Below, one piece after another: positions 824 to 24,311 of a stretch of 32,640 nucleotides of DNA (the first letter of the stretch is position 1; the number at the start of each line of letters is the position of its first letter). The notes below the pieces were generated by a model. That model did no database searches and had not been told where the DNA came from. It saw only the letters and a program-made list of their open reading frames with translations. Source of the DNA: an uncultured Gammaproteobacteria bacterium (GTDB lineage: Bacteria; Patescibacteriota; Microgenomatia; Daviesbacterales; UBA10151). The stretch lies in assembly GCA_964432475.1 (NCBI GenBank), contig CAYSNN010000003.1, positions 7,297 through 39,936 of the forward strand, written 5' to 3'. The translations under genes and the position numbers were made by a program.

Positions 824-2467
824 ATGTTTAAAATAGTTCAAACTCAAGTCCTGATATTAATTTTAGCTGCAGCCTTAATATTTAGGATTATAAATATTGA
901 CAGTAACCCACCCTCTATGTACGGAGACGAATTAACAATGGCACTGGATGTTAATTCAATACTCTACACAGGTTTTGACACGACAGGAAAATTCTTACCC
1001 TTAAACTTTATTATGGGAGGCGGCAGGCCTGTTGGATATGGTTATTTTTCGTTGCCTTTCATAGCAGTATTTGGGCCAGGCGCTTTAGGTATTAGGTTGT
1101 TATCTGTACTTTCCGGAATTGGAATAGTTTTACTAATTTATCTTTTAGGTAAATTACTTTTCTCAAAACAAGTAGGTTTATTTGCTGCATTACTGGTTGC
1201 TGTTTCTCCCTGGGATTTGTCTTTGAGCAGAGGCGGATTTGAGACGCATTTTGCCCTATTTTTAGCTCTTCTAGGAGTAGTGTTGTTTCTGATGGCTGAA
1301 AGAAAGCCTTGGTTTTATGTTATAGGCGCTTTAAGTTTTGGTTTAAGTATAAATACATATTCAACTTATAAGTTATCTTTACCTTTGTTAATACCTCTTT
1401 TAATGTGGTTTGCTAATTTTAAAGAGGTACTTTTAAGTATAAAGCACAGGTTTTATCTGATATTCTCAGTTTTTGTGTTGTCAATTTTTGTAATCTTACT
1501 TATGTTTCAGGCTTTCTTCGGGGCAAGCGAAACAAGATTTCTAAGTTTAAATATTTTTGCCCAAGGTGAAATCAGAGAGCAGATAATCCAAGCAATTAAT
1601 GAGCAAAGGAATTTAAGTTCAAACAGTAAAGAGTTATCAAAGCTTCTCCATAACAAATTCTGGGAATATGGATTTTTACTTCAGAAAAGTTATCTAAATA
1701 ATTTTTCTATAGACTTCTTATTTTTGACCGGCGACCGAAATCCGCGGCATAATATGGCCTCAAGCGGAAGTCTGTATCTTGCTCAAATAATTTTGTTACT
1801 TTTAGGTTTTGGACATCTATTTAAAAAGGAATATACAAAAAAAATAGTTTTTTTGGTAGGGTGGTTAGCTGTTGCACCTGTTGCCACATCGCTTTTACTT
1901 GAGACGCATGCCCTAAGGAGTTCTTTTATGCTGCCTCCTTTGACTTTGCTTTCTGCACTGGGATTATTTTATATATGGAATTTAAGAAGTATTTTAGCCA
2001 AAGGGGCTTTAGGAATTATTGCTTTAGGAATTATTATTCAATTTATAATTATTTGTGAAAATTTGTATTTTGTTTCTCCAAATAAATATTCGAGGTTTTG
2101 GTCATATCCTGCAAAAATGGCTTCCCAGATAGCAATTGACGAAAAAGAAAAATATGATTACATTTTTCTTTCTGATAGGATAGATGCTATTGAATTTGCT
2201 TATCCGGTGTATGCCCGGGTCCACCCCTTGAAAGTATTGGAACAAAACCAAAGACAGACAGAAATAAACGATAAATTATTTAGGAAATACGGAAATGTTT
2301 ATCTTGGTTCTATACCGGATAGTAGTGTTGGAAGCTTTTTAAAAAGTGTAAATGGTTCAATTCTATATATAGGTCCGGAGAGTGATTTAAAATACTTACA
2401 AGGATATGAAGTAGTTGAGGGTAAGGATAAATTAAAAGCCTTAGTGATTGAAAAATTAAAAAATTAA
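824..2467 (+). CDS. GT-C fold glycosyltransferase, GT39/ArnT/PMT_2-like (paralog A)
   Basis: 547-aa polytopic ORF. An N-terminal TM is followed by the loop NPPSMYGDELTMALDVNSILYTG..GKFLP (acidic DE motif typical of GT-C). It also has VSPWDLSLSRGG, FLFLTGDRNPRHN and ETHALRS, plus the C-terminal soluble module FWSYPAKM...YDYIFLS shared with the other paralogs. Confidence 0.8.
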   Translation: MFKIVQTQVLILILAAALIFRIINIDSNPPSMYGDELTMALDVNSILYTGFDTTGKFLPLNFIMGGGRPVGYGYFSLPFIAVFGPGALGIRLLSVLSGIGIVLLIYLLGKLLFSKQVGLFAALLVAVSPWDLSLSRGGFETHFALFLALLGVVLFLMAERKPWFYVIGALSFGLSINTYSTYKLSLPLLIPLLMWFANFKEVLLSIKHRFYLIFSVFVLSIFVILLMFQAFFGASETRFLSLNIFAQGEIREQIIQAINEQRNLSSNSKELSKLLHNKFWEYGFLLQKSYLNNFSIDFLFLTGDRNPRHNMASSGSLYLAQIILLLLGFGHLFKKEYTKKIVFLVGWLAVAPVATSLLLETHALRSSFMLPPLTLLSALGLFYIWNLRSILAKGALGIIALGIIIQFIIICENLYFVSPNKYSRFWSYPAKMASQIAIDEKEKYDYIFLSDRIDAIEFAYPVYARVHPLKVLEQNQRQTEINDKLFRKYGNVYLGSIPDSSVGSFLKSVNGSILYIGPESDLKYLQGYEVVEGKDKLKALVIEKLKN

Positions 2468-3668: not shown

Positions 3669-5293
3669 ACAAAAAAATTCTTATTACTTTAATGCTCATA
3701 ATTACAATTTTGGGTGGATTTTTGAGATTTTATAAGAACACGGAAAATCCACCGAGTTTAAATGGAGATGAGATATCCTTTGGTTATACTGCTTACTCAA
3801 TATTAAAGACTGGTAGAGATGAATGGGGAAAGTTTTTACCGATTACTTTTCAAGCAGTCGGAGATTACAAAAATCCAGTTCCTGGATACATAATGATGAT
3901 ATCAATCAAGCTGTTTGGATTGAATGATTTTGCTGTAAGATTTCAGAATGCCTTCTTCGGGACACTGATGATTCCAATATTTTTTCTATTCTTAACCCGA
4001 GTACTAAAAGAACAATTACCAGCTTTAATTGGTTCTTTCTTTCTGTCTATTTCGGCTTGGCATATTTTTTATTCAAGAATGGAATATGAATATATTCTGG
4101 CCTCATTTTTTGTACTCCTTGGCATATGGTTTTTTATGAAAATGCTTGAAGGAGGTAAGCGTTGGGCTTTCTTTTCTGCTTTTTTCCTTATTCTTACAAT
4201 GTATACTGCTCCTGCCCCCCGTCTTTTTGTACCGTTATTTGTTATTGTGTTATTGATTTTCACTCTTTCTAAATTCAAAACAAGATGTGATAAGATAGTT
4301 ATCTTTATTACAACTTGTGTAATATTAGGGCTTCCGCTAACATATGCCACCTTATTTCAAGGTGCTGGTACCAGACTTTCAATGGTTCTAATCTCAAATG
4401 ATATAGAATTCCAACGATATGTCCTGCTGGAATCTGCCCGTTCTGTAGCTGATATCCCCTTATTAATACTTTTTTGGGTGAAGAGGTACCTAAACTATCT
4501 ACAGCCCAATTTTTTATTTATTAACGGTTTAAATGTTACAAACCCGAATACTTTTGGTTTAGGAATGCTATATATTTATGAGTTACCATTTCTAATTGTT
4601 GGAGTTTTCGAATTTATATATAGAAGGATTCCTCACAAAGCAATCTTTGTGATATGGCTTTTAACGGGGATTTTTCCTGATTCAATTACGAATAATCAAC
4701 AACATGCCGGAAGACTATTGCATATTGCCCCTGTAATTATTCTCATAATTACTTTAGGAGCAATAAAATCTTATAACTGGTTTATAAATCTTTCTAAATC
4801 CTATCTTAAAGTAATTATTGCTGGATGTTTCAGTCTTTTGGTAATTATAGTTATGATACATGCTTTTCTGACCATTGCGATTTATTTTCCTAGAGCTAAG
4901 GGTGAATCTTTCGATGAAGGGTTAAAACAGGCAGCTTTATATATACGAGACCACCAAGATAGCTATGATGAGATAATATTTGATCCACGTAGAGGAGTTG
5001 AGGGTCCGTATCTGGTGAGTAATCCATATCTCTATGTACTGTTTTACTCAAAATATGACCCCTTTACTTACCAGACAGAGCAAAAGATATCTAGTCAGGA
5101 TGCTACATACTTTTTTAAGTTTAATAAATATACCTTCAGAGAGATTGAATGGAATGAAGATCAAAGCAGAAAAGAAACATTATTTATTGGTAGCCCCTGG
5201 AGTTTCCCCAAAGATTTAAAGTCGGATGAAATATTGGAAAAGATCTATATGTCTTCCGGTTTACCAGCATATTACATAGTATCTCCAAAATGA
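3665..5293 (+). CDS. GT-C fold glycosyltransferase, GT39/ArnT/PMT_2-like (paralog B)
   Basis: GTG start overlaps the upstream stop (GTGA), with GAGG about 10 nt upstream. Motifs are NPPSLNGDEISFGYTAYSILKTGRDEWGKFLPITF, ISAWHIFYSR and YLQPNFLFINGL. The C-terminal module is FDEGLKQAALYIRDHQDSYDEIIFD...PYLYVLFYSKYDP. Confidence 0.8.
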   Translation: MNKKILITLMLIITILGGFLRFYKNTENPPSLNGDEISFGYTAYSILKTGRDEWGKFLPITFQAVGDYKNPVPGYIMMISIKLFGLNDFAVRFQNAFFGTLMIPIFFLFLTRVLKEQLPALIGSFFLSISAWHIFYSRMEYEYILASFFVLLGIWFFMKMLEGGKRWAFFSAFFLILTMYTAPAPRLFVPLFVIVLLIFTLSKFKTRCDKIVIFITTCVILGLPLTYATLFQGAGTRLSMVLISNDIEFQRYVLLESARSVADIPLLILFWVKRYLNYLQPNFLFINGLNVTNPNTFGLGMLYIYELPFLIVGVFEFIYRRIPHKAIFVIWLLTGIFPDSITNNQQHAGRLLHIAPVIILIITLGAIKSYNWFINLSKSYLKVIIAGCFSLLVIIVMIHAFLTIAIYFPRAKGESFDEGLKQAALYIRDHQDSYDEIIFDPRRGVEGPYLVSNPYLYVLFYSKYDPFTYQTEQKISSQDATYFFKFNKYTFREIEWNEDQSRKETLFIGSPWSFPKDLKSDEILEKIYMSSGLPAYYIVSPK

Positions 5294-7086: not shown

Positions 7087-8156
7087 AGACTGCAATCTAC
7101 TCCCCTTATTTAGATACATTTGGTGGTGGTGAGAAGTATATGATGACTATAGCTGAAGTTTGTTGTCAGGCTGGTTATAAAGTTGATGTACTTTTGAGTA
7201 ATCATTTAAACAGTTTAGGTCCGGAGTTATTAAGAAAGCAGTTATCAGAGAGATTTAATTTAGATCTTTCAAACGTAAATTTTATTAAGGCTCCAATAGG
7301 GAAAGGATCAAATTTATTTAATAGACTCTTTTTTCTCAAAAATTATGACAGCTTTTTTTATTTAACTGATGGAAGTATTTTTATTTCAACCGCGGATAAA
7401 AATATTTTACATATTCAGACTCCCCTTGTAGGCCAACCGGCTAAAAGTATTTGGGGTAAAATCAAGCTGAAGTTTTGGAATTTAATTATCTATAATTCAC
7501 AGTTTACTAAAGCAAACTCTGATAAGAATTGGCCGCTCTCATCTGAGGTGGTTTTTCCTCCGGTTGATATTGATAAAATCAAGCCTCTGCAGAAGAAAAA
7601 TTATATACTTTCTGTGGGTAGATTTTTTGGTTACTTGAAAGATAAAAAGCATGAATTGATGATTAAAACTTTCAAAAAATTAGTTGAAACTAAAAGAATT
7701 GTCGGCTGGAGTTTAAATTTAGTTGGTTCGGCAAATAGCGGAGACGAACCATATTTAATGCAGTTGAAAAGTTTGGCAAAAGGATTACCTATAAATTTTT
7801 ATCCCAATTTAAGCTATGATGATTTAGTCAAGTTGTACGGACAATCCTCTATTTATTGGCATGCCTCAGGATTTGGGGAAAATGAGCCAACAAAAATGGA
7901 GCATTTCGGTATTGCTACTGTAGAGGCAATGGCAGCAGGTTGTGTGCCTGTTGTAATAAGGAAAGGCGGACAAATAGAAATTGTAGGTGCAGGCAGCGGT
8001 TTTTTATGGAACGATCCGGGTGAGTTTCAGGAATACACCATGAAAGTTATTTCAGATAAAGCCTTAAGAGAAAAAATTGGAAAAAAGGCAATTGAGAAAA
8101 CAAGGCTTTTTTCGAAAAAGAATTTTAAAGAAAAAATATTAGAGGTTTTAAGATGA
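7083..8156 (+). CDS. GT4 (Glycos_transf_1) glycosyltransferase, ALG11-like by motif
   Basis: ATGA overlap with the upstream gene. The N-terminal YSPYLDTFGGGEKYMMTIAEV and the EX7E region EHFGIATVEAMAAGCVPVVIRKGGQIEIV resemble ALG11-type alpha-mannosyltransferases. This comparison is from memory, not a search. Confidence 0.7.
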   Translation: MKTAIYSPYLDTFGGGEKYMMTIAEVCCQAGYKVDVLLSNHLNSLGPELLRKQLSERFNLDLSNVNFIKAPIGKGSNLFNRLFFLKNYDSFFYLTDGSIFISTADKNILHIQTPLVGQPAKSIWGKIKLKFWNLIIYNSQFTKANSDKNWPLSSEVVFPPVDIDKIKPLQKKNYILSVGRFFGYLKDKKHELMIKTFKKLVETKRIVGWSLNLVGSANSGDEPYLMQLKSLAKGLPINFYPNLSYDDLVKLYGQSSIYWHASGFGENEPTKMEHFGIATVEAMAAGCVPVVIRKGGQIEIVGAGSGFLWNDPGEFQEYTMKVISDKALREKIGKKAIEKTRLFSKKNFKEKILEVLR

Positions 8157-9625
8157 ATAATTGGTTTAAGATTGCAGTCTTTCTTTTGGTTTTTCTTTTT
8201 ACCTTTATACTAAGAGCACATAATTATGAAAAAACTCCCGGGGCTCTGCATCTGGATGAAATGCTTTATGCCTGGTCCGGGTTGTATTTAATTGAAACCG
8301 GTATTCCTGTTTCTTGGTCCACCCTGGATTACCCCCAAAGAGCGGAAATTTTTAAAGGAACAGTTGATTATAGGGGAGGAGAACCGTCAACATCTGTTAC
8401 CCTTTATAAACCTTGGTTAGATGAGCCACCTCTTTTCTCTTTGATAGTTGGATACTTTGCCCACAATTTTAAGGCTGACAGAACTGACTTTATCCCATCA
8501 TCTTATATTAGATTTCCGACTGTTATTTTTGCTGCTATAACATCTATTATGGTTTTTCTCATTACCAGGTTACTGAGCGGATATTGGACTGGAATACTTG
8601 CTATGCTCATCTACGGAACAGTACCTATCTTTGTTTTTGCTTCCCGGGTTGCTTTACCAGAAAATTTAATTGCCTTAATTTTCGTATTGATGGCTTTTTT
8701 ACTGTTAAAGTTTTATCAACACCCTCAATTTAAATATATACTGCCCATACCCTTATTGGTTGGTATTGCAGGATTATCTAAACCAACAGGTTTTTTTCTT
8801 ATATTTATAGCTATTTATATAATCTTTAAAAAAATGTATGAGGATAAACAATTTAAAAAAGCAATCTGGAAAATTTTATATGTTATTTTGGGAACAATTC
8901 CATTTATTGGGATATTTATTTCCTATGGTTTTTACTTTGACCCGGAAATCTTTTGGAGAATAACTTCTGTTCAGTCTTTTAGACCGGTAGGTTTTAAAAG
9001 TTTAGCCTGGTTTTTTGTATCACCTTCATATGGAACACATTTTGTAATTGATGGATGGTATATTTTTTGCTTGCTCTCTGCGGCATATTTTATTTTTGCT
9101 CCAAAAGAAGGGTTAAAAAGATTAATTAGCTTATTTTTTGTATTTTGGATAGGAGTTGTCATAATTAGCGGAGGAGAGGGTGATCTGCTGGCATGGTATC
9201 GCTTTCCTTCCTTCCCTTTCTTAGCAATACTGGGAACATGGGGCTTGCAACTATTGATTCAGAAATCGAATCTCTTTACATCATTTTTAGCTGTAGGGTT
9301 TCTTTTATCAAGCAGATCGTTACTGGTTAATGCCTTCAGGCCAAATATTGCTCCACTCAATTTTAGGCTGTTCTTTTCCACCTTACTTTTACCTTCAATA
9401 TTAGAATCTATTTTTGAAACCCCGCTACTTCACAAAGTAACAAAAGCAGTGATGATTTTAGTTATTTCAGTTGGAATTTATCTAAATGTTTTATATATAT
9501 ACAATGAATATGAGATTGTTTGTCAGAGCGTTGATTGTCCTCTCGTGCCAACTACGACTTTATCGACTCTTCACTTTCCTTTTTTCTGGAGATTTTTTGT
9601 TCTGGGAGAATCAAAATATAGATAA
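8153..9625 (+). CDS. GT-C fold glycosyltransferase, PMT_2-like with a long first loop
   Basis: ATGA overlap with the upstream gene. TM1 is followed by TPGALHLDEMLYAWSGLYLIETG, a long loop ending KPWLDEPPLFSLIVGYF (PPL motif of PMT_2/ArnT), and at least 10 further hydrophobic helices. It has no WQYGY tail. Confidence 0.7.
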   Translation: MNNWFKIAVFLLVFLFTFILRAHNYEKTPGALHLDEMLYAWSGLYLIETGIPVSWSTLDYPQRAEIFKGTVDYRGGEPSTSVTLYKPWLDEPPLFSLIVGYFAHNFKADRTDFIPSSYIRFPTVIFAAITSIMVFLITRLLSGYWTGILAMLIYGTVPIFVFASRVALPENLIALIFVLMAFLLLKFYQHPQFKYILPIPLLVGIAGLSKPTGFFLIFIAIYIIFKKMYEDKQFKKAIWKILYVILGTIPFIGIFISYGFYFDPEIFWRITSVQSFRPVGFKSLAWFFVSPSYGTHFVIDGWYIFCLLSAAYFIFAPKEGLKRLISLFFVFWIGVVIISGGEGDLLAWYRFPSFPFLAILGTWGLQLLIQKSNLFTSFLAVGFLLSSRSLLVNAFRPNIAPLNFRLFFSTLLLPSILESIFETPLLHKVTKAVMILVISVGIYLNVLYIYNEYEIVCQSVDCPLVPTTTLSTLHFPFFWRFFVLGESKYR

Positions 9626-10362
9626 TGGGAAATCCTAAGGTATTAATTGTTATGCCTGCATATAATGCAGAGAAAACCCTGATTGATACATATTATGAGA
9701 TTCCGAGTAAGTTCCGTCATAATATTATTGTTGTTGATGATCAAAGTAAGGATAAAACAGTCGAGATTGCCAAAAGTTTGGGAATTAAGGTTTATACTCA
9801 CACCAGTAATCTAGGATATGGGGGAAACCAAAAAACTTGCTACCAGCAAGCCCTAAAATTAAATACCGACATAGTAGTAATGCTACATCCTGATTATCAA
9901 TATGATGCTAGTCTGATTGAGGAACTTATTAGGCCGATAACGCAGGGCAGGTATGATTTTATGTTTGGTTCAAGGATTCAAAATAAAGAAGGGGCCTTGA
10001 GAGGAGGAATGCCGAAGCTTAAATATTATATTAATCGTCTAACTTGTATAATTGAAAATATATTACTAGGAGTTAATTTTACCGAACACTTTTCGGGTTT
10101 TAGGGCTTATTCCGTCAGTGTGCTTAAAAAGGTACCTTTTGAGAAGTTTTCAAATGATTTTGTCTTTGATCAGCAGATGGTGATGTCAGCGCTAAGTTGT
10201 GACTTCAGAATTGGAGAGATAGCTATTCCAACAAGATATCATGATAAAGCTTCATCTATACAATTTATAAAAGGAACAAAATTCCTTCTGCAAACTTTTT
10301 GGACAATATTTCTTTTTCAACTCCATCAATCAGGATTAATAAGAAGCAGGTTTTTTAAGTAA
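9625..10362 (+). CDS. GT2 glycosyltransferase, DPM1/GtrB-like (putative polyprenyl-phosphate sugar synthase)
   Basis: TAATG one-nt overlap with the upstream gene. Motifs are VLIVMPAYNAEKTL, VVDDQSKDKTVEIAKSLG, MLHPDYQYD, GSRI...GGMPKLKYYINRLT, HFSGFRAYS and a hydrophobic C-terminal helix. Confidence 0.7.
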   Translation: MGNPKVLIVMPAYNAEKTLIDTYYEIPSKFRHNIIVVDDQSKDKTVEIAKSLGIKVYTHTSNLGYGGNQKTCYQQALKLNTDIVVMLHPDYQYDASLIEELIRPITQGRYDFMFGSRIQNKEGALRGGMPKLKYYINRLTCIIENILLGVNFTEHFSGFRAYSVSVLKKVPFEKFSNDFVFDQQMVMSALSCDFRIGEIAIPTRYHDKASSIQFIKGTKFLLQTFWTIFLFQLHQSGLIRSRFFK

Positions 10363-10428: not shown

Positions 10429-12087
10429 ATGATGAAAACTACAAAATATCTAGTTTTTATACTAATAATCTTACTTGCGTTTTTTTTGAGACTTCATAAG
10501 GTAACTGAGATACCGCCATCTTTAAACTGGGATGAGGTTTCCATAGGTTATAATGCTTATTCTATTTTAAAAACAGGAAAGGATGAATGGGGTAAATTCT
10601 TCCCAATTCATTTTAAATCTTATGGGGAGTATAAGTTACCTGTTCAAATTTATTTATCAATTCCGGGAATCTACTTTTTTGGTTTGAATGAAATCGGTGT
10701 CAGAATTACACCTGTAATTTATGGAACCTTGACAGTCTTAATAATGTTTTTTTTAGGAAGGGCCCTTTTCCAAAGCTTTGTAGCCGGTCTAATATCTGCA
10801 TTTCTTCTTGCTATATCCGCCTGGCATATCCAACTGACAAGGGCTTCTTTTGAATCTTCGCTGGCTACTCTTTGGATCGTTTTGGGGATATGGTTTTTTG
10901 TTAAGGGTTTTAGAAGTCAGAAGTGGTTTGTTTTTGCAATGATACCGTTTGCATTATCTGTTTTTACTTATAATACGGCAAGGTTTTTTACTCCGCTATT
11001 TGTCATAGTAATTTTTTTGTTATATTACAAAAAGCCTGGGGGATTTAGAAAAGTATTGATACTTTCAGTAATAAGTTTTGTTATTTTGCTTTTACCGCTA
11101 ACACCGTTTTTACTTTCAGGAGAAAGGAGTGCAAGATATAAATTGGTAAGTATCACTGATGATCCGGGGTTAGTATTAAGAATAAATGAAAACAGGGGTG
11201 CCTCCAGCCTCCCCCAACCCTTACCCCGTTTGATACACAACAAAGTAAGTTATGTTAGTTTTTATTTTGCAAAAAACTACCTACTGCATTTTAGTCCACA
11301 ATTTTTATTTGTATCGGGGGCTCCACACAAGCAACATCATGTGCAAAACATGGGACAACTCTATTATTTTCAGGCACCCTTTCTGATATTAGGTTTATGG
11401 GGTCTGTTTAAATTCAAGAATAAATTTAAGGGCCTACTTTTATCATGGGTGCTTCTCGCCTTTATTCCGGTTTCTGCCACAAATGACAGTATACCTCATG
11501 CTTTAAGAACACTGATAGCAGCGCCTTTCTATCAGTTTATTTCAGCATATGGATTTTTGTGTTTTCTAAAATGGTCAAAAAGAATTCATAAAGTTATAAA
11601 TATTTCATTATCAGCAATACTAATCATTATAGTGATTAGTAGTATTAACTTTTACTTAAATCAGTATTACAATATCTATCCCAAAGTCTATTCAAGAGAT
11701 TGGCAGTATGGTTATAAGGAAGTTGTAGGGTATATAGCAGAGCATAAAGATGAATATGATCAAATTATTTTTTCAAGGCACTTCGGCGAGCCGCATATGT
11801 TTACTCTTTTCTATTTAAACTATGATCCGGCTAAATATCAAAAAGATCCTACTTTAGTAAGATTTGAAACACATGATTGGGTTAGGGTACTAAGATTCAA
11901 CAAATACTATTTTCCTGATTTAGGTGATGAAGGCACTAAGTTTGATGATGTTGTAAAAGAAAATCCGGGCAAGAGACTACTATTTATTGGAAAAATGGGT
12001 GATTTCCCAAAAGATATGCACAGGCTTTTTACTGTTGATTTTCTTGACGGTAAAAGAGCCTTTGAAGTTGTAGAAGTAAAGCCCTAG
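10429..12087 (+). CDS. GT-C fold glycosyltransferase, GT39/ArnT/PMT_2-like (paralog C)
   Basis: IPPSLNWDEVSIGYNAYSILKTGKDEWGKFFPIHFKSYGEYKLP, ISAWHIQLTR, HFSPQFLFVSG and IPHALRT. The C-terminal module is RDWQYGYKEVVGYIAEHKDEYDQIIFSRHFGEPHMFTLFYLNYDP. Its stop TAG (12085-12087) overlaps the stop of the convergent gene. Confidence 0.85.
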   Translation: MMKTTKYLVFILIILLAFFLRLHKVTEIPPSLNWDEVSIGYNAYSILKTGKDEWGKFFPIHFKSYGEYKLPVQIYLSIPGIYFFGLNEIGVRITPVIYGTLTVLIMFFLGRALFQSFVAGLISAFLLAISAWHIQLTRASFESSLATLWIVLGIWFFVKGFRSQKWFVFAMIPFALSVFTYNTARFFTPLFVIVIFLLYYKKPGGFRKVLILSVISFVILLLPLTPFLLSGERSARYKLVSITDDPGLVLRINENRGASSLPQPLPRLIHNKVSYVSFYFAKNYLLHFSPQFLFVSGAPHKQHHVQNMGQLYYFQAPFLILGLWGLFKFKNKFKGLLLSWVLLAFIPVSATNDSIPHALRTLIAAPFYQFISAYGFLCFLKWSKRIHKVINISLSAILIIIVISSINFYLNQYYNIYPKVYSRDWQYGYKEVVGYIAEHKDEYDQIIFSRHFGEPHMFTLFYLNYDPAKYQKDPTLVRFETHDWVRVLRFNKYYFPDLGDEGTKFDDVVKENPGKRLLFIGKMGDFPKDMHRLFTVDFLDGKRAFEVVEVKP

Positions 12088-13670
12088 AGCGTATAAAAGT
12101 AAAACGCAGGTTTAAAGCTGGGTAAGGTGATAGTATAAATTTTTTGAAGATTTGAATTTTGCTCAGGTGCATTAGAAACGGGTACAATATACAGATTTCC
12201 TGTTTCTAACTTTTCTTTATCCCAATTAATATTTCTGATCTGGTATTTATCAAAGTAAGCCCCTGATTTTTCCCGCCTGCTCCCCAGTAATTTATAGGGA
12301 TTTAAAATAGTATAGTAAGGGATGTACAAATGAGGAAGCCCAGAATACATATTTGCCGGGCCAAATCGGGGATCGATAATAATTTGGTTAAACTCATGAT
12401 ATTTCGGTTTAATAAAAAGCGCCATCTGTTTATAACCATATTGGAAACCTTGGGCGGAATCTTTTGGAAAGTGATAATAGAAAATTGCTAAAAAATACAA
12501 GAAAGAAACAGTTAAAACAGTTGTAAAAATAATTTTCCAACTATTTTTGGCAGATTTCCAGAATATAAGTATTCCAGCAGCGCTGATGATTGAGATAGAA
12601 ATTAAACTGACTAAGTTTCTTGATGTGCTTTGAGGGCCGGAGGTAAGTGAGGCTGTGAACGGTGACGTAATTAAGAAAATATAAATGAACCTTGAATTTT
12701 CTTGAAATAACGTCGCTACTCTGCATAGTCCAATTAGGAAGAATGGAAGGAGGGGAAATAGAAATACCCCTACCTGGAATGGATCTCCTTTAGGCAATAG
12801 AAAATAGCCGGTAAAAAATAAATAAGAAAGATTGAAATAAGATGAGTATTTATCCAGGAAAGCTTGAATAATCAAAGAGCCTTTCTGCCATATATACAAA
12901 TTAGTATCTTCCAACCTTTGTGCTAAATGAGGCTCCTTTAATAAATTTTCCGTATTTGCCCTGGTTGAAGAATGTAAATTGTTTAAAAAGTCTAAAAAGA
13001 TTGGAATAATAAGAAGAATAAATAATAATATTCCAATATAATATTCCGGTTTTTTGAAAATTGCCTTATAATTCATTACAGAGAGTAAAATGATAATAAA
13101 GGGGGTGAAAACCCACTCTGTATGATAGCCATATATAGATAAAGCAAATGAAATAAAGCTTAATAAAGGTATAAAAAGATTATTCTTTCGCAGGCCCAAG
13201 AAAAATAAATAAATTCCCAGTATAAAAAAGAATAAGGCTATATTAGACTCATAGGCCATATGAGAGGTTAGAATATGCATAGGGGAGAGTGCGAGAACAA
13301 AAGAACTAACGAGTCCCAAGTATTTGTTTTTGGATAATTCAAATACCAGTAGGCCTAAAACAAGAACTGTCAGACTGCCTAAAAAGGCAGAAGGTAATCT
13401 GGCAGCAATTTCGCCATTGCCCAAAATAATTGTAGTAGGAACAGAAAGATAAATAGCTAAAGGCGCTTTATAAGTGCTATGTGATTGAAAGGATAGAGGC
13501 AAAAAGTTATTATGCTCATCTCGAAGTGTTTTTGATACGGAATATGCATCATAGGCAATAGAAATCTCATCATTTCCCAGATTAGGGGGTATACTACTTA
13601 ATCCTACAAATCTTGTAAGTATTGTTATAATTGCAACTAAAATTACCCAGAAGAAAAAATTAAATTTCAT
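12084..13670 (-). CDS. GT-C fold glycosyltransferase, GT39/ArnT/PMT_2-like (paralog D)
   Basis: IPPNLGNDEISIAYDAYSVSKTLRDEHNNFLPLSFQSHSTYKAP and LSPMHILTSH. The C-terminal module is GFQYGYKQMALFIKPKYHEFNQIIID. I prefer the ATG at 13670 (MKFNFFFWV...), which forms an ATGA overlap with the upstream gene's stop, over the track's start at 13709. Confidence 0.8.
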   Translation of the reverse strand: MKFNFFFWVILVAIITILTRFVGLSSIPPNLGNDEISIAYDAYSVSKTLRDEHNNFLPLSFQSHSTYKAPLAIYLSVPTTIILGNGEIAARLPSAFLGSLTVLVLGLLVFELSKNKYLGLVSSFVLALSPMHILTSHMAYESNIALFFFILGIYLFFLGLRKNNLFIPLLSFISFALSIYGYHTEWVFTPFIIILLSVMNYKAIFKKPEYYIGILLFILLIIPIFLDFLNNLHSSTRANTENLLKEPHLAQRLEDTNLYIWQKGSLIIQAFLDKYSSYFNLSYLFFTGYFLLPKGDPFQVGVFLFPLLPFFLIGLCRVATLFQENSRFIYIFLITSPFTASLTSGPQSTSRNLVSLISISIISAAGILIFWKSAKNSWKIIFTTVLTVSFLYFLAIFYYHFPKDSAQGFQYGYKQMALFIKPKYHEFNQIIIDPRFGPANMYSGLPHLYIPYYTILNPYKLLGSRREKSGAYFDKYQIRNINWDKEKLETGNLYIVPVSNAPEQNSNLQKIYTITLPSFKPAFYFYTL

Positions 13671-14491
13671 ATCTTGGGACTGATATAAATAAAGAAGCTC
13701 AAGGCCCAAAAAAATAAATAGATTTTTTTATTGACACCTTGTGCTCCAACCAGTATTAAATAAAGCAGTAACGGTCCCAAAAGATAAAGTGACTGAAATT
13801 TATCGGGTGATCTATCAATTCCTGCAGTTAACATAGTTACAGAAAAAGTAGTTATAAAGAAGAATTTCAATTTATCCTTTTCTGTGAAAATTTTATATAT
13901 GCCGGTAAATAAAAGATATAAATTAGCAAGAATTAATACCTCATAAAGATTTTTTAAATTTAAGAAATCAAAAAAATTTGTAAGAGCAGCATAGATATAA
14001 ATTGTCTCGGAATAAAACAGTTGCCGAACTTTATACGGAAGAAAAAGGGCATCCTGTTGATGTTGGTTAAGATATAAATTTACTTCCGGAGAATTAAAGA
14101 TTAATTGTGAGTCCTGTAAACTAAAAGGGTATTTAATTACCTCACTTAAATAAAGGTGTCCAAAGAAGATATAAATTATCCATATAATAATGAGATATTT
14201 ATTTGGTTGCTTAATATAAAGGTAGATCAAAATCAGAGCTGCTAAAGGGAGAACTGCGAAAAGATTAGGATCCGGTTGGTAAGAGAAAATTGGCATAAGT
14301 CCCAGTGATATTAAAAGGAAATTATTAAACGTATTGTTTTTTAAAGCTAAATAGTTTTGAAAAAGCAAAATTGATAATCCTAAGGCAAGGCTATTGATTA
14401 ATGAAGTAAATAGGCTGTGGTGAGAAAAATAATTTACAAACAAGCACACTAAAGATGCGATAATAATAGTAAGTAATAGACTGCGGTGCAT
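13667..14491 (-). CDS. Truncated GT-C-paralog-like polytopic membrane protein (no DE loop, no C-terminal module)
   Basis: 274 aa and hydrophobic. LIFNSPEVNLYLNQ, LFYSETIYIYAALTNFFDFL and the following helices are collinear with the middle part of the 2469 product and of the full-length paralogs. It is translationally coupled (ATGA) to paralog D. Confidence 0.5.
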   Translation of the reverse strand: MHRSLLLTIIIASLVCLFVNYFSHHSLFTSLINSLALGLSILLFQNYLALKNNTFNNFLLISLGLMPIFSYQPDPNLFAVLPLAALILIYLYIKQPNKYLIIIWIIYIFFGHLYLSEVIKYPFSLQDSQLIFNSPEVNLYLNQHQQDALFLPYKVRQLFYSETIYIYAALTNFFDFLNLKNLYEVLILANLYLLFTGIYKIFTEKDKLKFFFITTFSVTMLTAGIDRSPDKFQSLYLLGPLLLYLILVGAQGVNKKIYLFFWALSFFIYISPKI

Positions 14492-14527: not shown

Positions 14528-16124
14528 ACCGCGATTGTTGTTTTCTGCGAGATTTTTTATGGGTTTAATATGCTTATTTTTTTTATTAACCCGTATTTAT
14601 AATCTCGATAAGATCCCACCTTCTTTATATTGGGATGAAGCCTCGATTGCATATAATGCTTATTCAATTTCTCGGACTGGTAAAGATGAATGGGGGGAAT
14701 TTTTACCGATTCATTTTAGGGCTTTTGGTGAGTTTAAGTTACCTATCTATATTTATACCACCGCAATTTTCGTAAAACTAATAGGACTGAATGAGTATGC
14801 AGTCAGGCTACCGGCAATTTTATTTTCGCTTCTAACAATAATTATTACTTTTTTCTTGGCTAAAGAGCTTTTTAAAGACAGTAAAATTGCTTTACTTAGC
14901 GCTTTTTTTCTATCCATATCTCCTTGGTGGTTTATCTTTACCAGGGTGGGATATGAGGCATCTGCGGGGTTAATGTTTTTTATGTTAGGTGTTTACCTAA
15001 TGCTTAAGGCGCTACGGAAAAGGTTCCTAGTATTATTTGCAGTTTTTGCTTTTATTTTTAGTATCTATAGTTATAATAGCTTTCGGGTACTTGTTCCGAT
15101 AACTTTATTACTTTTTCTTTTCCTGCATGCATACTCTTCTAAAAAAAGTTTTCTTCTATTCTGTGGCGCATTGATTATTTTTGTAATTAGTTTAGCTCCC
15201 ATTGCTAGACTATTAATCTTCGATGCAGGTTTTGGGAGAGTTCAATCTTTTGTTCTGCTCCCCACAATCCAACAAGTCTATGATTTATCCGGTAAACCAC
15301 GTCTGCAACTAATCTTTGACCGTAGCGGACCAACTGATTGGAGTAAAAATGTTTGGGGCATATTTAATAACTACCTGGTTCACTTTAGTCCTTCTTTTCT
15401 ACTTTTTGACGGAGATACAAACCCAAGGAATCATCCGGCAGGATCGGGCCAATTTTTTTTGCCGGATCCAGTTTTGATATTGCTGGGGATATTCATTATT
15501 AAAAGAAAGAAAAAACGATTGCTTTATCTACCGATAATGTTTGTGTTGTTAGGGCCTGTTCCTGCAGTCTTATTTAGAGAATCTCCTCATGCACTTAGGT
15601 CATTGGCGATAGTTCCTTTTCTTTGTATGGTTATGGGAGCAGGAGCAAGTGCAATTTCAGATTACTTTAAAAAATCTACAATTTTGATAATTATTGTTTA
15701 TTCTTCCTTCTTTGCGTATTTCTTCCATAATTTTATTACCCGTTATCCTGTGCAATCATCTCAGGATTGGCAGTATGGTTATAGAAGGTTATTTATAGAT
15801 TATAAAGATAGTTTTGATAATTTTGATAAAGTTATTATTTCTGATGAATACGCCCAGCCTTATATCTTTGCTTTGTATAATTTAAAATATAATCCTGAAA
15901 AATTCAAAGAGGAAGTTAAACATAATGATATTAATAATTGGGGTTTTTCCACTGTATCAGCATTTGGCAATTTTGAATTTAGAAAAATAGCCAAAAATGA
16001 TTTTGACTTAAAAAAAACTTTAATCTTTGCAAGCTCAATTGATAAATCAGATACAAAAGACTCACAGGCTCAAATTAAATTTCTTAATGGTGAAACTGCT
16101 TTTTGGGTGTACAATTTGTATTAA
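14514..16124 (+). CDS. GT-C fold glycosyltransferase, GT39/ArnT/PMT_2-like (paralog E)
   Basis: IPPSLYWDEASIAYNAYSISRTGKDEWGEFLPIHFRAFGEFKLP, ISPWWFIFTR, HFSPSFLLFDGDTNPRNH and SPHALRS. The C-terminal module is QDWQYGYRRLFIDYKDSFDNFDKVIISDEYAQPYIFALYNLKYNP. Confidence 0.85.
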   Translation: MPKSIPRLLFSARFFMGLICLFFLLTRIYNLDKIPPSLYWDEASIAYNAYSISRTGKDEWGEFLPIHFRAFGEFKLPIYIYTTAIFVKLIGLNEYAVRLPAILFSLLTIIITFFLAKELFKDSKIALLSAFFLSISPWWFIFTRVGYEASAGLMFFMLGVYLMLKALRKRFLVLFAVFAFIFSIYSYNSFRVLVPITLLLFLFLHAYSSKKSFLLFCGALIIFVISLAPIARLLIFDAGFGRVQSFVLLPTIQQVYDLSGKPRLQLIFDRSGPTDWSKNVWGIFNNYLVHFSPSFLLFDGDTNPRNHPAGSGQFFLPDPVLILLGIFIIKRKKKRLLYLPIMFVLLGPVPAVLFRESPHALRSLAIVPFLCMVMGAGASAISDYFKKSTILIIIVYSSFFAYFFHNFITRYPVQSSQDWQYGYRRLFIDYKDSFDNFDKVIISDEYAQPYIFALYNLKYNPEKFKEEVKHNDINNWGFSTVSAFGNFEFRKIAKNDFDLKKTLIFASSIDKSDTKDSQAQIKFLNGETAFWVYNLY

Positions 16125-16126
16125 AA

Positions 16127-17722
16127 ATGAAAAGATCTGTCAAAATTGCCTTTATATTAGTAATCCTGCTGGCAGCATTTTTAAGGATTTACAAGTTAGA
16201 TCAGCTTCCTCCGGGACTAAATTGGGATGAAGCTGCAGCCGGGTATAATGCCTACACAATAGCTAACTGGAGAAAAGATGAATGGGGACAATCTTTTCCA
16301 TTGGTTTTTACCTCTTTTAGAGATGATAAACATCCTGTTCATATCTATATAACTGCCATATTTGTAAAATTTCTTGGTTTATCAGATTTTACTACGAGAT
16401 TGTCCGGAGCAACGATTGGAGTACTTAGTGTAATACTAATCTTTTATCTAGCTAGGGTGCTATTTAAGAGTGATTTAGCAGCACTGTTCTCAGCGCTATT
16501 TTTAGCAGTTTCTCCGTACCATCTTCAATTTTCAAGAGGGCTTTGGGAAGTAAACTTTGCGCTTTTTTTCTTCATGTCGGGACTTCTGTTTTTTTATCTG
16601 GCATTGGAAAAGAAAGGTTGGCTAATAAATATATCATTTTTAAGCTTTGGTCTTAGTATGTTTGCTTATCATTCTTCAAAAATTGTAGTTCCGCCGATAA
16701 TCCTGCTGCTTTGCATTGTTAATTTTAAGAATCTGAAAGCATCAAAAAATTTTTACAGCGGCCTATTTATTTTTCTAATTTTTATAGTCCTTATGATTAT
16801 AGATCCAAGATTATTTGGAACAGCCAGAATGAAACAGACTCAACAAAATCAAGAAGATTTTGAAAAAACAGCCACTTATAAAGTTACAAAAAATTATAAT
16901 TTGGCCAAAGGAGAAAAATTGATTAAAAACTACTTAAGCCACTTTACTCCCCGGTATTTATTTTTAGCAGGAGATCAGAGCCCAAGGAATTCAGTTAAGA
17001 CCCGTGGAGAATTCTACAAAATTGACGCGCTTTTTATATTAATGGGACTTTTCTATTTATTAAAATTAAGATCAAAAGTTACATTGATAATATTAGCCTG
17101 GCTATTTATATCACCTATTCCTGCCAGTTTGGTTGGAGGTTCACCCAGTGCTACCAGAGCTATTTTCATGATGGGAAGTATTTATCTTATTTCAGCTTAT
17201 GGAGCAAGTAAACTGTTAGGATTAATAAAAGGAAGAGCAAAAATATTAATTGTTATTATTCTCTTAAGTTTACTTGCATACGAGACACACTCTTACCTGT
17301 ATTATTACTTTAATATATATTCAAAGAAAGAACCTACAGATTGGCAATATGGTATGAGACAAGTTGTAGAGTATGTAAAGACTCATCCCGGATATCAGAC
17401 AATTTATATGACTGAGGAGAGGTCGCAACCGTATATTTTTTTCCTGTTTTACCTGAAAGAATCCCTGCCTGATTTTATAAATACCGTGATGTATAACCGT
17501 TGGGATAGTAAGAGTTATAAATATAATACTGTTTCCTCTTTTGATAAATATTATTTCGGCGGCTGGGATACAGTTGAGAGTTATCCCACCACTAACGTAT
17601 TATATGTACTTACACCAAGTCAGTATGATGGGTTAAGACATCGGGCTCAATTTGATGTCAAAAAGATTATCCAGCTTCCTGATGGAGGCAATGCATTCTA
17701 TTTAGTAAGTGCAAGAAAATGA
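16127..17722 (+). CDS. GT-C fold glycosyltransferase, GT39/ArnT/PMT_2-like (paralog F)
   Basis: LPPGLNWDEAAAGYNAYTIANWRKDEWGQSFPLVF, VSPYHLQFSRG and HFTPRYLFLAGDQSPRN. The C-terminal module is TDWQYGMRQVVEYVKTHPGYQTIYMTEERSQPYIFFLFYL. I prefer the ATG at 16127 (MKRSVKIAF), 2 nt after the upstream stop, over the track's GTG at 16103. Confidence 0.85.
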   Translation: MKRSVKIAFILVILLAAFLRIYKLDQLPPGLNWDEAAAGYNAYTIANWRKDEWGQSFPLVFTSFRDDKHPVHIYITAIFVKFLGLSDFTTRLSGATIGVLSVILIFYLARVLFKSDLAALFSALFLAVSPYHLQFSRGLWEVNFALFFFMSGLLFFYLALEKKGWLINISFLSFGLSMFAYHSSKIVVPPIILLLCIVNFKNLKASKNFYSGLFIFLIFIVLMIIDPRLFGTARMKQTQQNQEDFEKTATYKVTKNYNLAKGEKLIKNYLSHFTPRYLFLAGDQSPRNSVKTRGEFYKIDALFILMGLFYLLKLRSKVTLIILAWLFISPIPASLVGGSPSATRAIFMMGSIYLISAYGASKLLGLIKGRAKILIVIILLSLLAYETHSYLYYYFNIYSKKEPTDWQYGMRQVVEYVKTHPGYQTIYMTEERSQPYIFFLFYLKESLPDFINTVMYNRWDSKSYKYNTVSSFDKYYFGGWDTVESYPTTNVLYVLTPSQYDGLRHRAQFDVKKIIQLPDGGNAFYLVSARK

Positions 17723-22784: not shown

Positions 22785-24311
22785 ATGTGGTTTTTGAAGA
22801 AAAAAATTTTAATCGCTTTTGCCTTCCTCTTTTTACTCACGTCCGGTTATTTCTACAATAATAAAGCATTAGATTTTAGATTTGTTGATGAGGAAGACAA
22901 TTTTGCTATAGGTAAATACCTTGCAAAAGGAGAGATGCTTTATGATGATATACTCACAAACCACCAACCGTTGACTTATATTTTTAGCGCATTTATACAT
23001 AAATTTACCAATCCTAATAGTGTTTATGTTTTAATAACAAGACATAGGCAATTTGAGATAATCTGGTCAACCGCTTGGTCGCTCCTTCTGATATTTTATT
23101 TCGGGTTGGGTGCATTTATAGCTGTTTTTATTTTTGAGCTTACAAAAATTTATCTACTAGGCAATTTATTTTTGTCTGAAGCCCAAACCATATATCCGCT
23201 ACTTATTATTACCGGGTTAGCAGTCTTCTCCTATAAAAGAAGATTAAAAAGCCTGGAGTTGATTCTTCTAGGTATATGTTTTGGGATCGTATTACTTATG
23301 CTAAGTCCGCTTTGGCCTGCGTTAACCCTTTTATTAATTTTTCTACTTTTAAAACAACGGGAAAACTTACTACACACAATGGGCTATATCTTGGTGGGTT
23401 TGTTATTACCAGTATCAATTTTATTCAAATTTACCTCTTTTCCCGGGTATTTAAATTATATATTTTCTATTAATTTAACCTATACTATCCCAAGTTACCA
23501 TAATGAGTCCTGGATTATATCAATTTCCAAAGCCTTACTTACTCCAGTTCTAGCACTTTTTTCACAAGATATCGGTCCAATGGCAATAATAATTAAGCTG
23601 CTCGGAGTCTTGTTAATAGTAAACATTGTGTTTCTGGTATTTAAAAAGCAATTGCTTTTAGCAATCAGCATTTTAATCCTGCTGGGTCTTTGTAATATCC
23701 GATTTATCTTTCCCGGCACCCAAGGATATGAAGGGTTTCATTTATTACCATGGTACGCAATGCTTGTTTTTATAGTTTCTATTTTATCAGTTGAGCTTTT
23801 TTGGAAAAGCAATATAATATTGAAGGTACTTAATCCCTTAGTAATTATTTTACTGGTTGGGTTAAGTATTAATTTTTTACAAGCAGATTTATTTCAGAAA
23901 AAAAATATGACAGATAGTTACAACATTAATTATTCAACAGTTATTAATAGAGGTGATGCGGTGAAAGTCATGAAAGAGGCAGGAGATACATTATTTGTTT
24001 CTCCTAATGCATGGATGATTTATTGGCAGGGGGATATTGACCACTTACCAAAATTGTACGGTTATTACACTTGGATGTCAGGTGTTCCGGAAATACATTC
24101 AGCTGTTTTGGATGCATTTTCTAAAAATCCACCAACTTTTTTTTACTGCGAAAACTGTAAGGGCTTAGATTTAGAAAAATTTCTAAGTGGATATATAGAA
24201 ATTAAAAATAATGGAAATTTGAGTATGTTATATGTTTTAAAGAGTAAGATTCCAAGATTGACTAAAGAACAGTTGGCTCAATTAAGTTTTTACGGTTTCA
24301 GCATAAATTAA
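22785..24311 (+). CDS. Orphan polytopic membrane protein, probable GT-C fold (PMT_2-like first loop)
   Basis: 508 aa. TM1 is followed by the acidic loop FRFVDEEDNFAIGKYLAKGEMLYDDILTNHQPLTYIF (DE-type motif plus a (K/H)xPL motif). It has about 11 helices and a C-terminal soluble region of about 130 aa. Confidence 0.5.
   Translation: MWFLKKKILIAFAFLFLLTSGYFYNNKALDFRFVDEEDNFAIGKYLAKGEMLYDDILTNHQPLTYIFSAFIHKFTNPNSVYVLITRHRQFEIIWSTAWSLLLIFYFGLGAFIAVFIFELTKIYLLGNLFLSEAQTIYPLLIITGLAVFSYKRRLKSLELILLGICFGIVLLMLSPLWPALTLLLIFLLLKQRENLLHTMGYILVGLLLPVSILFKFTSFPGYLNYIFSINLTYTIPSYHNESWIISISKALLTPVLALFSQDIGPMAIIIKLLGVLLIVNIVFLVFKKQLLLAISILILLGLCNIRFIFPGTQGYEGFHLLPWYAMLVFIVSILSVELFWKSNIILKVLNPLVIILLVGLSINFLQADLFQKKNMTDSYNINYSTVINRGDAVKVMKEAGDTLFVSPNAWMIYWQGDIDHLPKLYGYYTWMSGVPEIHSAVLDAFSKNPPTFFYCENCKGLDLEKFLSGYIEIKNNGNLSMLYVLKSKIPRLTKEQLAQLSFYGFSIN

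Follow-up and report, generated by a model that had tools for sequence, protein, structure and literature searches.

An undescribed soluble C-terminal domain family on GT-C glycosyltransferase paralogs of a Microgenomates glycan cluster

Six GT-C glycosyltransferases encoded in one gene cluster of Candidatus Daviesbacteria, a tiny-genome groundwater bacterium (class Microgenomates, Patescibacteria), carry a soluble module after their last transmembrane (TM) helix. We rate this module as a new domain family within an already known GT-C architecture, the outer C-terminal alpha/beta cap. More likely than not, it is an outer cap that both completes the cavity of the active site and takes part in selecting the acceptor, and it is integral to this GT-C subfamily. 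The stretch analyzed, referred to as the window, comprises 32,640 nucleotides of contig CAYSNN010000003.1 (assembly GCA_964432475.1, positions 7,297 to 39,936); it is a dense glycan-synthesis cluster with 33% GC. The six open reading frames (ORFs) of interest encode collinear polytopic proteins of 536-552 aa and lie at the following window positions.

824-2467, plus strand: GT-C paralog P0005
3665-5293, plus strand: GT-C paralog P0006
10429-12087, plus strand: GT-C paralog P0001, with a 552-aa product
12084-13709, minus strand: GT-C paralog P0002
14514-16124, plus strand: GT-C paralog P0003
16103-17722 (alternative start 16127), plus strand: GT-C paralog P0004

The N-terminal ~230 residues of all six proteins match the Pfam families PMT_2 and PMT over threshold, with PMT_2 scoring 27-52 bits in 6/6 against a cut-off of 26.1. 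Residues D35 and E36 do not vary among the six or across 150 aligned sequences, and the paralogs are GT39/PMT_2-type GT-C glycosyltransferases. A full-length AlphaFold2 model of P0001, computed from a 150-sequence alignment, was confident (pLDDT 90.8, pTM 0.90) and shows 11 TM helices, split 7+4 as they are in PMT. Since Foldseek matched this model to STT3A/B, AglB, PglB, ArnT, and Pmt4 at E 4e-9 to 3e-6, we assign the P0001 body to the GT-C fold. AftA and AftB were also among the fold matches.

10429..11688, plus strand: GT-C transmembrane catalytic body of P0001, 11 TM helices, with D35-E36 in outer loop 1

The original prediction, made from the DNA letters, was that every paralog ends in a shared soluble module. 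Hydropathy bears this out for 6/6: the last TM helix lies at about residue 400-420 and is followed by a tail of 128-140 aa. All the strings quoted for the six proteins were found in their translations, and the interval given for P0001, 11698-12084, indeed runs from the codon of D424, where DWQYGY starts, through the last codon. The aligned tails are 21-34% identical among the six paralogs, and pairwise tail-versus-tail BLASTP reached E values down to 5e-12. We then built a hidden Markov model (HMM) from 143 outside representative tails only and, with Z set to 1e6, scored the six window tails with it. Since this outside-only model gave E values of 2e-40 to 8e-6, the six tails are homologous, beyond chance. 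The module copies are as follows.

11689..12084, plus strand: copy of P0001, residues 421-552, after TM11 (helix 388-420); external HMM E 2e-40
12087..12473, minus strand: copy of P0002; external HMM E 5e-24
15738..16121, plus strand: copy of P0003; external HMM E 2e-35
17300..17719, plus strand: copy of P0004; external HMM E 3e-31
2081..2464, plus strand: copy of P0005, the most divergent; external HMM E 8e-6, positions 8-108 only
4898..5290, plus strand: copy of P0006, with SFDEGL in place of WQYGY; external HMM E 1e-31

The 3665 gene (P0006) had been singled out as the more divergent version. This does not hold, since P0006 differs only in WQYGY; the most divergent copy overall is that of the 824 gene (P0005), which is without the QPYIF and FYxKYDP motifs.

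Modeled on its own from an alignment of 143 tails translated from the window and 52 genome loci, the tail forms a confident alpha/beta domain of 5 helices and 6 strands (pLDDT 96.2, pTM 0.89). The secondary structure agrees between the full-length and tail-only models and is, in P0001 numbering:

429-442: helix
445-448: strand
455-462 and 467-471: helices
477-480 / 485-490 (full-length model) or 477-481 / 484-490 (tail-only model): hairpin
505-511: helix
517-521, 532-537, and 543-550: strands

Thus, the layout first proposed (motif, helix, strand, aromatic helix, and beta-rich end) was recovered in two AlphaFold2 runs on different alignments. In these models the predicted domain is compact and begins directly after TM11, with a helix, a strand, two helices, a beta-hairpin, a helix, and three strands in succession. 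The whole-chain pTM of 0.90 implies confident packing, in which the tail would sit in a fixed orientation on the membrane body.

Motif conservation was counted over 147 family members. The positions common to the family are Y413, W425-Q-Y-G-Y-K430, Y443, I446, P455-Y-I-F, L460-F-Y462, Y465-D-P467, F490-x-K-Y-x-F495, L518, and G541-x-x-A-F545. Best conserved is WQYGYK, which lies 5 residues past TM11, at the outer membrane boundary. The sole column that is invariant across the six window tails is an alanine, A544 in P0001.

11701..11718, plus strand: W425-Q426-Y427-G428-Y429-K430 (W 82%, Q 76%, Y 82%, G 84%, K 78%)
11788..11829, plus strand: E454-P467, the aromatic helix-turn (Q/E)P(Y/H)(I/M)F.LFY..YDP (P455 73%, F458 aromatic 93%, L460 79%, F461/Y462 aromatic 93-94%, P467 88%)
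11896..11913, plus strand: F490-x-K492-Y493-x-F495, a strand motif in strands 477-480 / 485-490 and the next stretch (F495 85%, K492 74%)
12049..12063, plus strand: G541-x-x-A544-F545, the start of the last strand (G 74%, A 67%, F 65%)

An extracytoplasmic location had also been proposed for the module. Lysine and arginine are abundant in the N-terminus and in alternate short loops of P0001 (GFRSQ, KKPGG, FKNKF, KRIH) but not in the other short loops. With these K/R-rich loops and the N-terminus inside, and with 11 TM helices, the tail comes to lie outside the cell together with the D35-E36 loop. The topology run therefore agrees with the proposal and gave no cytoplasmic placement. The charge of the tail is near neutral (20 K+R versus 23 D+E) and is uninformative by itself.

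The suggestion that the module belongs to no described family also stood up to the searches. Pfam returned only sub-threshold noise for the six tails at E<=10 and only noise for 37 diverse tails at E<=1; DUF5049 was rejected, since its 16.5 bits, over 23 residues, fall short of the 28.7 cut-off. NCBIfam gave weak matches in the N-terminal body of the full proteins and none in the tail, and sequence profiles built from 6 and from 37 tails had no meaningful match in the PDB. With the tail model, Foldseek found no relative in the PDB (best E 0.19, TM <= 0.40) or in BFVD. A literature search for GT-C or mannosyltransferase work in Patescibacteria or Microgenomates found no relevant paper.

We then considered that the tail may be a very divergent member of a known unit, either Arnt_C or the central core of STT3/PglB/AglB that holds WWDYG, and hence no evolutionarily new family. 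The periplasmic C-terminal domain of ArnT (Arnt_C, PF18583; 5EZM and 5F15) is a soluble alpha/beta domain of ~100-130 residues that follows the last TM helix, on the outer side and above the active site, so that place and structural class are the same. Moreover, the sequence and the fold of the P0001 membrane body both match ArnT (E 3e-5 and E 5e-7, respectively). However, the full-length sequence profile reaches 5EZM over residues 68-221 only, and the tail alone has no Foldseek match to it. Arnt_C, with a gathering score of 26.5 bits, had no match at E<=1 either in the 37 diverse tails or in a six-frame search of the whole 1.08-Mb host genome, and ArnT has 13 TM helices versus 11 in the module family.

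The other candidate is the core of the oligosaccharyltransferase (OST) enzymes. For the full-length P0001 model, Foldseek ranked STT3A/B, AglB, and PglB first (E 4e-9 to 1e-7) and ArnT below them. The C-terminal core of these enzymes also lies on the outer side after the last TM helix and has an aromatic W-x-Y-G near its start; the W-Q-Y-G of the module resembles W-D-Y-G of WWDYG. In OST, the WWD motif binds the acceptor peptide (PMC10859629). The tail has D-W-Q-Y-G-Y-K instead, with one Trp only and Gln in place of Asp, and we recognized in it neither the DK nor the MI motif (with its +2 Ser/Thr pocket) that the core needs along with WWDYG. The module is also much smaller (~130 aa), outer loop 1 holds a PMT-type D-E pair, and the tails have no match to STT3-related Pfam models at E<=1. 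The best 50 Foldseek matches of the tail alone, all with E >= 0.19, include no GT-C chain. The W-Q-Y-G likeness is only a lead, homology being unsupported by the sequence and fold searches, and we regard a divergent member of either family as unlikely. The module may act like the periplasmic domains of ArnT, PglB, or AftA, yet the searches made for those families did not place it in any of them.

Outside the window, the module is abundant. Searching with a profile of the six tails at E<=1e-3 gave 2,429 clusters (50% identity), of which 855 reach E<=1e-10. In 329/338 sequences the module ends <=10 residues from the protein C-terminus. One metagenome protein (P0250, 667 aa) has an additional Cys- and charge-rich stretch of ~120 residues beyond the module. 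Using the P0001 tail as a single query, we gathered 52 genome loci. They contain 160 module matches, 1-6 per 16 kb, with at least two in 45/52. Where a lineage is named, the loci come from Daviesbacteria, Woesebacteria, Shapirobacteria, Levybacteria, Curtissbacteria, Gottesmanbacteria, Chisholmbacteria, Beckwithbacteria, and Microgenomatus.

The module was never detached from the enzyme in these loci: all 160 matches are C-terminal to a GT-C ORF. Several candidates for detached copies were discarded. Every short module-bearing ORF in the loci is cut by a locus edge; the short matches in the representative library have their start within the last TM helix or else at an internal Met codon and are fragments; and three proteins with unrelated N-termini (P0258, P0283, and P0277) look chimeric. 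An apparent in-frame TGA in three related genomes proved to be an ordinary stop codon.

Besides the six copies in the window, the host genome has a seventh on contig C1. At E<=1e-5, the module was found in 253/301 sampled genomes of the class (~84%), each of which has 1-13 matches. In a phylum-wide sample it occurs in 19/24 genomes of the same class versus 11/376 of other classes, and the latter matches are mostly weak. The module-bearing subfamily of PMT_2/GT39-type GT-Cs is thus largely confined to Microgenomates. Nearly every family of the class has the module; family f10 has it in 0/15 genomes, most of them 100% complete, which suggests a lineage-specific loss. A shortened form appears in seven Daviesbacteria-type genomes (L002, L003, L006, L008, L012, L013, and L015; about 8400-9800), where a GT-C of ~460 aa lies directly downstream of the P0001 ortholog. 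Its tail, which matches the module over the first ~85 positions only, resembles a half-module variant that has been conserved. The inverted P0002 gene takes this place in the window.

How singular is the module among the GT-Cs of its own genome? A six-frame search for PMT_2 gave 27 matches, 22 of which exceed the Pfam cut-off; GT-C enzymes take up roughly 4% of the genome, and the WQYGY module is present on only 7 of the 27. Twelve other GT-Cs have soluble C-terminal tails of 105-175 aa in the same position. One of these (C95:1154-1606+, a 545-aa ORF) carries four outer C-terminal tetratricopeptide repeats (TPR; TPR_1 E 1e-30), a TMTC-like architecture in a bacterium of the Candidate Phyla Radiation (CPR). 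TMTC1-4 and other PMT_2 + TPR enzymes likewise combine a PMT_2-type body with an acceptor-binding module at the outer C-terminus, and the C95 sibling is identical to them in architecture; they differ from the module-bearing enzymes in having TPR repeats rather than a compact alpha/beta domain. The other eleven tails (105-145 aa; contigs C1, C6, C8, C12, C19, and C30) have no Pfam match. Examples are:

C1:38551-38985, minus strand: non-module GT-C tail
C6:6060-6515, minus strand: non-module GT-C tail
C12:10365-10775, plus strand: non-module GT-C tail

An HMM search iterated for six rounds over the genome and the loci did not join the other GT-C tails to the module. Aligning the family profile against them with hhalign gave probabilities of <=21%, most of the targets being single sequences. 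The eleven unmatched tails may share the module fold. Since the module, the TPR repeats, and the other tails occupy the same position, the outer C-terminus of GT-Cs looks like a slot for alternative soluble domains, of which the WQYGY module is the commonest in this genome. The family is undescribed, as had been supposed, but less singular than was implied: twelve sibling GT-Cs carry other tails, and an outer C-terminal alpha/beta cap is recurrent in GT-Cs (PMC10265970).

The cap role draws on what is established for other GT-Cs. The external membrane boundary is where their catalytic sites are found (PMC10859629), and because WQYGYK is located there, it fits such a role. A C-terminal alpha/beta sandwich over the catalytic site is common to AftA, AftD, PglB, ArnT, and AglB (PMC10265970). 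In AftA and AftB (an alpha5beta5 sandwich; 8IF8 and 9DLH) this domain is periplasmic and belongs to enzymes that build wall glycan from a polyprenyl-phosphate sugar (PMC10265970). AftA differs in its 13 TM helices and in a metal site between its transmembrane and C-terminal domains that is not evident in P0001, and the tail alone gave no match to these domains. By analogy with ArnT, PglB, AglB, and AftA, the module would sit as a cap over the cavity of the active site, at the outer boundary of the membrane. Docking on the membrane body and outer loops, beside the donor site for the polyprenyl-phosphate sugar, would fall to the WQYGYK / QPYIF / FYxKYDP core. The variable surface of the module, together with the TM7-TM8 loop, may help each paralog select its own acceptor, which could be a growing surface glycan or a glycoprotein.

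The pattern of divergence is in line with this proposal. Paralogs resemble one another least in the tail (identity 0.23-0.28) and in outer loop 4, between TM7 and TM8 (0.22-0.28). Within orthologs identity is high, 0.47-0.71 in the tail and 0.47-0.80 in the TM7-TM8 loop. For catalytic loop 1, the values are 0.43-0.57 between paralogs and 0.67-0.83 within orthologs. A shared docking core combined with a paralog-tuned surface that includes the TM7-TM8 loop would be expected to give this pattern. The same loop separates the paralogs from PMT1/2/4 (GT39), with which they share the Pfam PMT match, the invariant D-E in loop 1, and the 7+4 layout of 11 TM helices. The PMTs have a soluble MIR domain between TM7 and TM8 and no C-terminal domain, whereas the paralogs have a C-terminal domain and, in P0001, an 86-residue loop; Pfam found no MIR domain in them.

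Acceptor recognition, the function put forward in the original prediction, is consistent with the divergence of the tail and TM7-TM8 loop and with the TPR sibling, which is circumstantial evidence for a putative role. Taken with the caps described in PMC10265970 and a neighborhood of GT2 and GT4 glycosyltransferases, a Wzx-like flippase, and sugar-nucleotide enzymes, the sibling makes the cap and acceptor reading fit. The fold, membrane side, C-terminal position, and divergence pattern are results; from here we infer the contact of the tail with the active site, and any binding. Several points weigh against this interpretation. The best-conserved residues are common to all paralogs and cannot encode a paralog-specific choice of acceptor; the presence of the strongest motifs (WQYGYK, QPYIF, and FYxKYDP) in all of them points to a common core function. 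Foldseek gave no link to the periplasmic domains of ArnT, PglB, AglB, or the Aft enzymes, and the analogy is one of position and secondary-structure class only. The divergence could reflect relaxed constraint on soluble surfaces. Finally, the presumed contact between tail and active site is a deduction rather than a reading of model coordinates.

Such a common core function could be purely structural: the tail may stabilize the membrane body or form a dimer interface, with no substrate contact. Its strongest motifs are rich in aromatic and aliphatic residues of the buried type, and the AftA C-terminal domain contributes to a dimer interface (PMC10265970). Yet conservation within orthologs, at 0.47-0.71, is at least as high as in the TM segments, which is more than usual for a passive stabilizer, and in a sibling enzyme the same position is occupied by TPR, a binding module. 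We find a purely structural or oligomerization role doubtful.

A bolder version of the acceptor-selecting cap is that the module would have a genuinely novel fold, which arose inside the Microgenomates and serves a radiated family of GT-Cs as the subunit that selects the acceptor. WQYGYK would then be a counterpart, convergent or anciently homologous, of OST WWDYG; the acceptors would be peptides, and surface proteins such as S-layer proteins and pilins would be glycosylated rather than a polysaccharide extended. This we consider improbable.

Slightly less credible still is that the tail holds a polymer acceptor or anchors the enzyme to wall glycan, away from the active site, as does the carbohydrate-binding module (CBM) at the C-terminus of EmbC. 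The conserved aromatics (W425, Y427, Y429, Y443, F458, F461, Y462, Y465, F490, Y493, and F495) would suit glycan binding, as would the location of the genes in a large cluster with GT2, GT4, flippase, and sugar-nucleotide genes. But the EmbC module is a lectin-like beta-sandwich, whereas the tail is alpha/beta in the model; no CBM or lectin fold was among the Foldseek matches, and the best-conserved motif abuts the membrane instead of projecting outward. That the tail is cytoplasmic and regulatory can hardly be right, given a confident model with 11 TM helices, K/R-rich alternate loops and N-terminus, and the 7+4 layout of PMT, whose C-terminus is luminal in the Pmt1-Pmt2 structure.

The module marks a tractable subfamily in which to study acceptor choice by GT-Cs, which across most of the superfamily is still an open question. 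Its natural sets of six to thirteen paralogs, in which the core is conserved and the surfaces vary, form a ready series for specificity swaps. The module also bears on the composition of the surface glycan or glycoprotein coat of uncultured episymbiont-like bacteria, in which a tiny CPR genome nevertheless holds 27 PMT_2-type GT-C matches, seven with the module. As a well-folded, unannotated family of >2,400 clusters, it could be added to Pfam or InterPro. It is useful and well defined, yet it will not surprise a GT-C specialist.

Four further ORFs of the cluster have no Pfam match at E<=1.

22785-24311, plus strand: ORF of 508 aa
27003-28919, plus strand: ORF of 638 aa
2469-3668, plus strand: ORF of 399 aa
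13667-14491, minus strand: ORF of 274 aa

The cluster also encodes a seventh PMT_2/PMT GT-C (window 8153-9625, plus strand, 490 aa). It is without the module, and its tail past the last TM helix is ~39 residues long. Many loci with a Microgenomates-type array (L003, L006-L008, L010-L012, and others; binchicken assemblies) carry the titles "uncultured Gammaproteobacteria" or "Pseudomonadales", which look like placeholder or wrong taxonomy.

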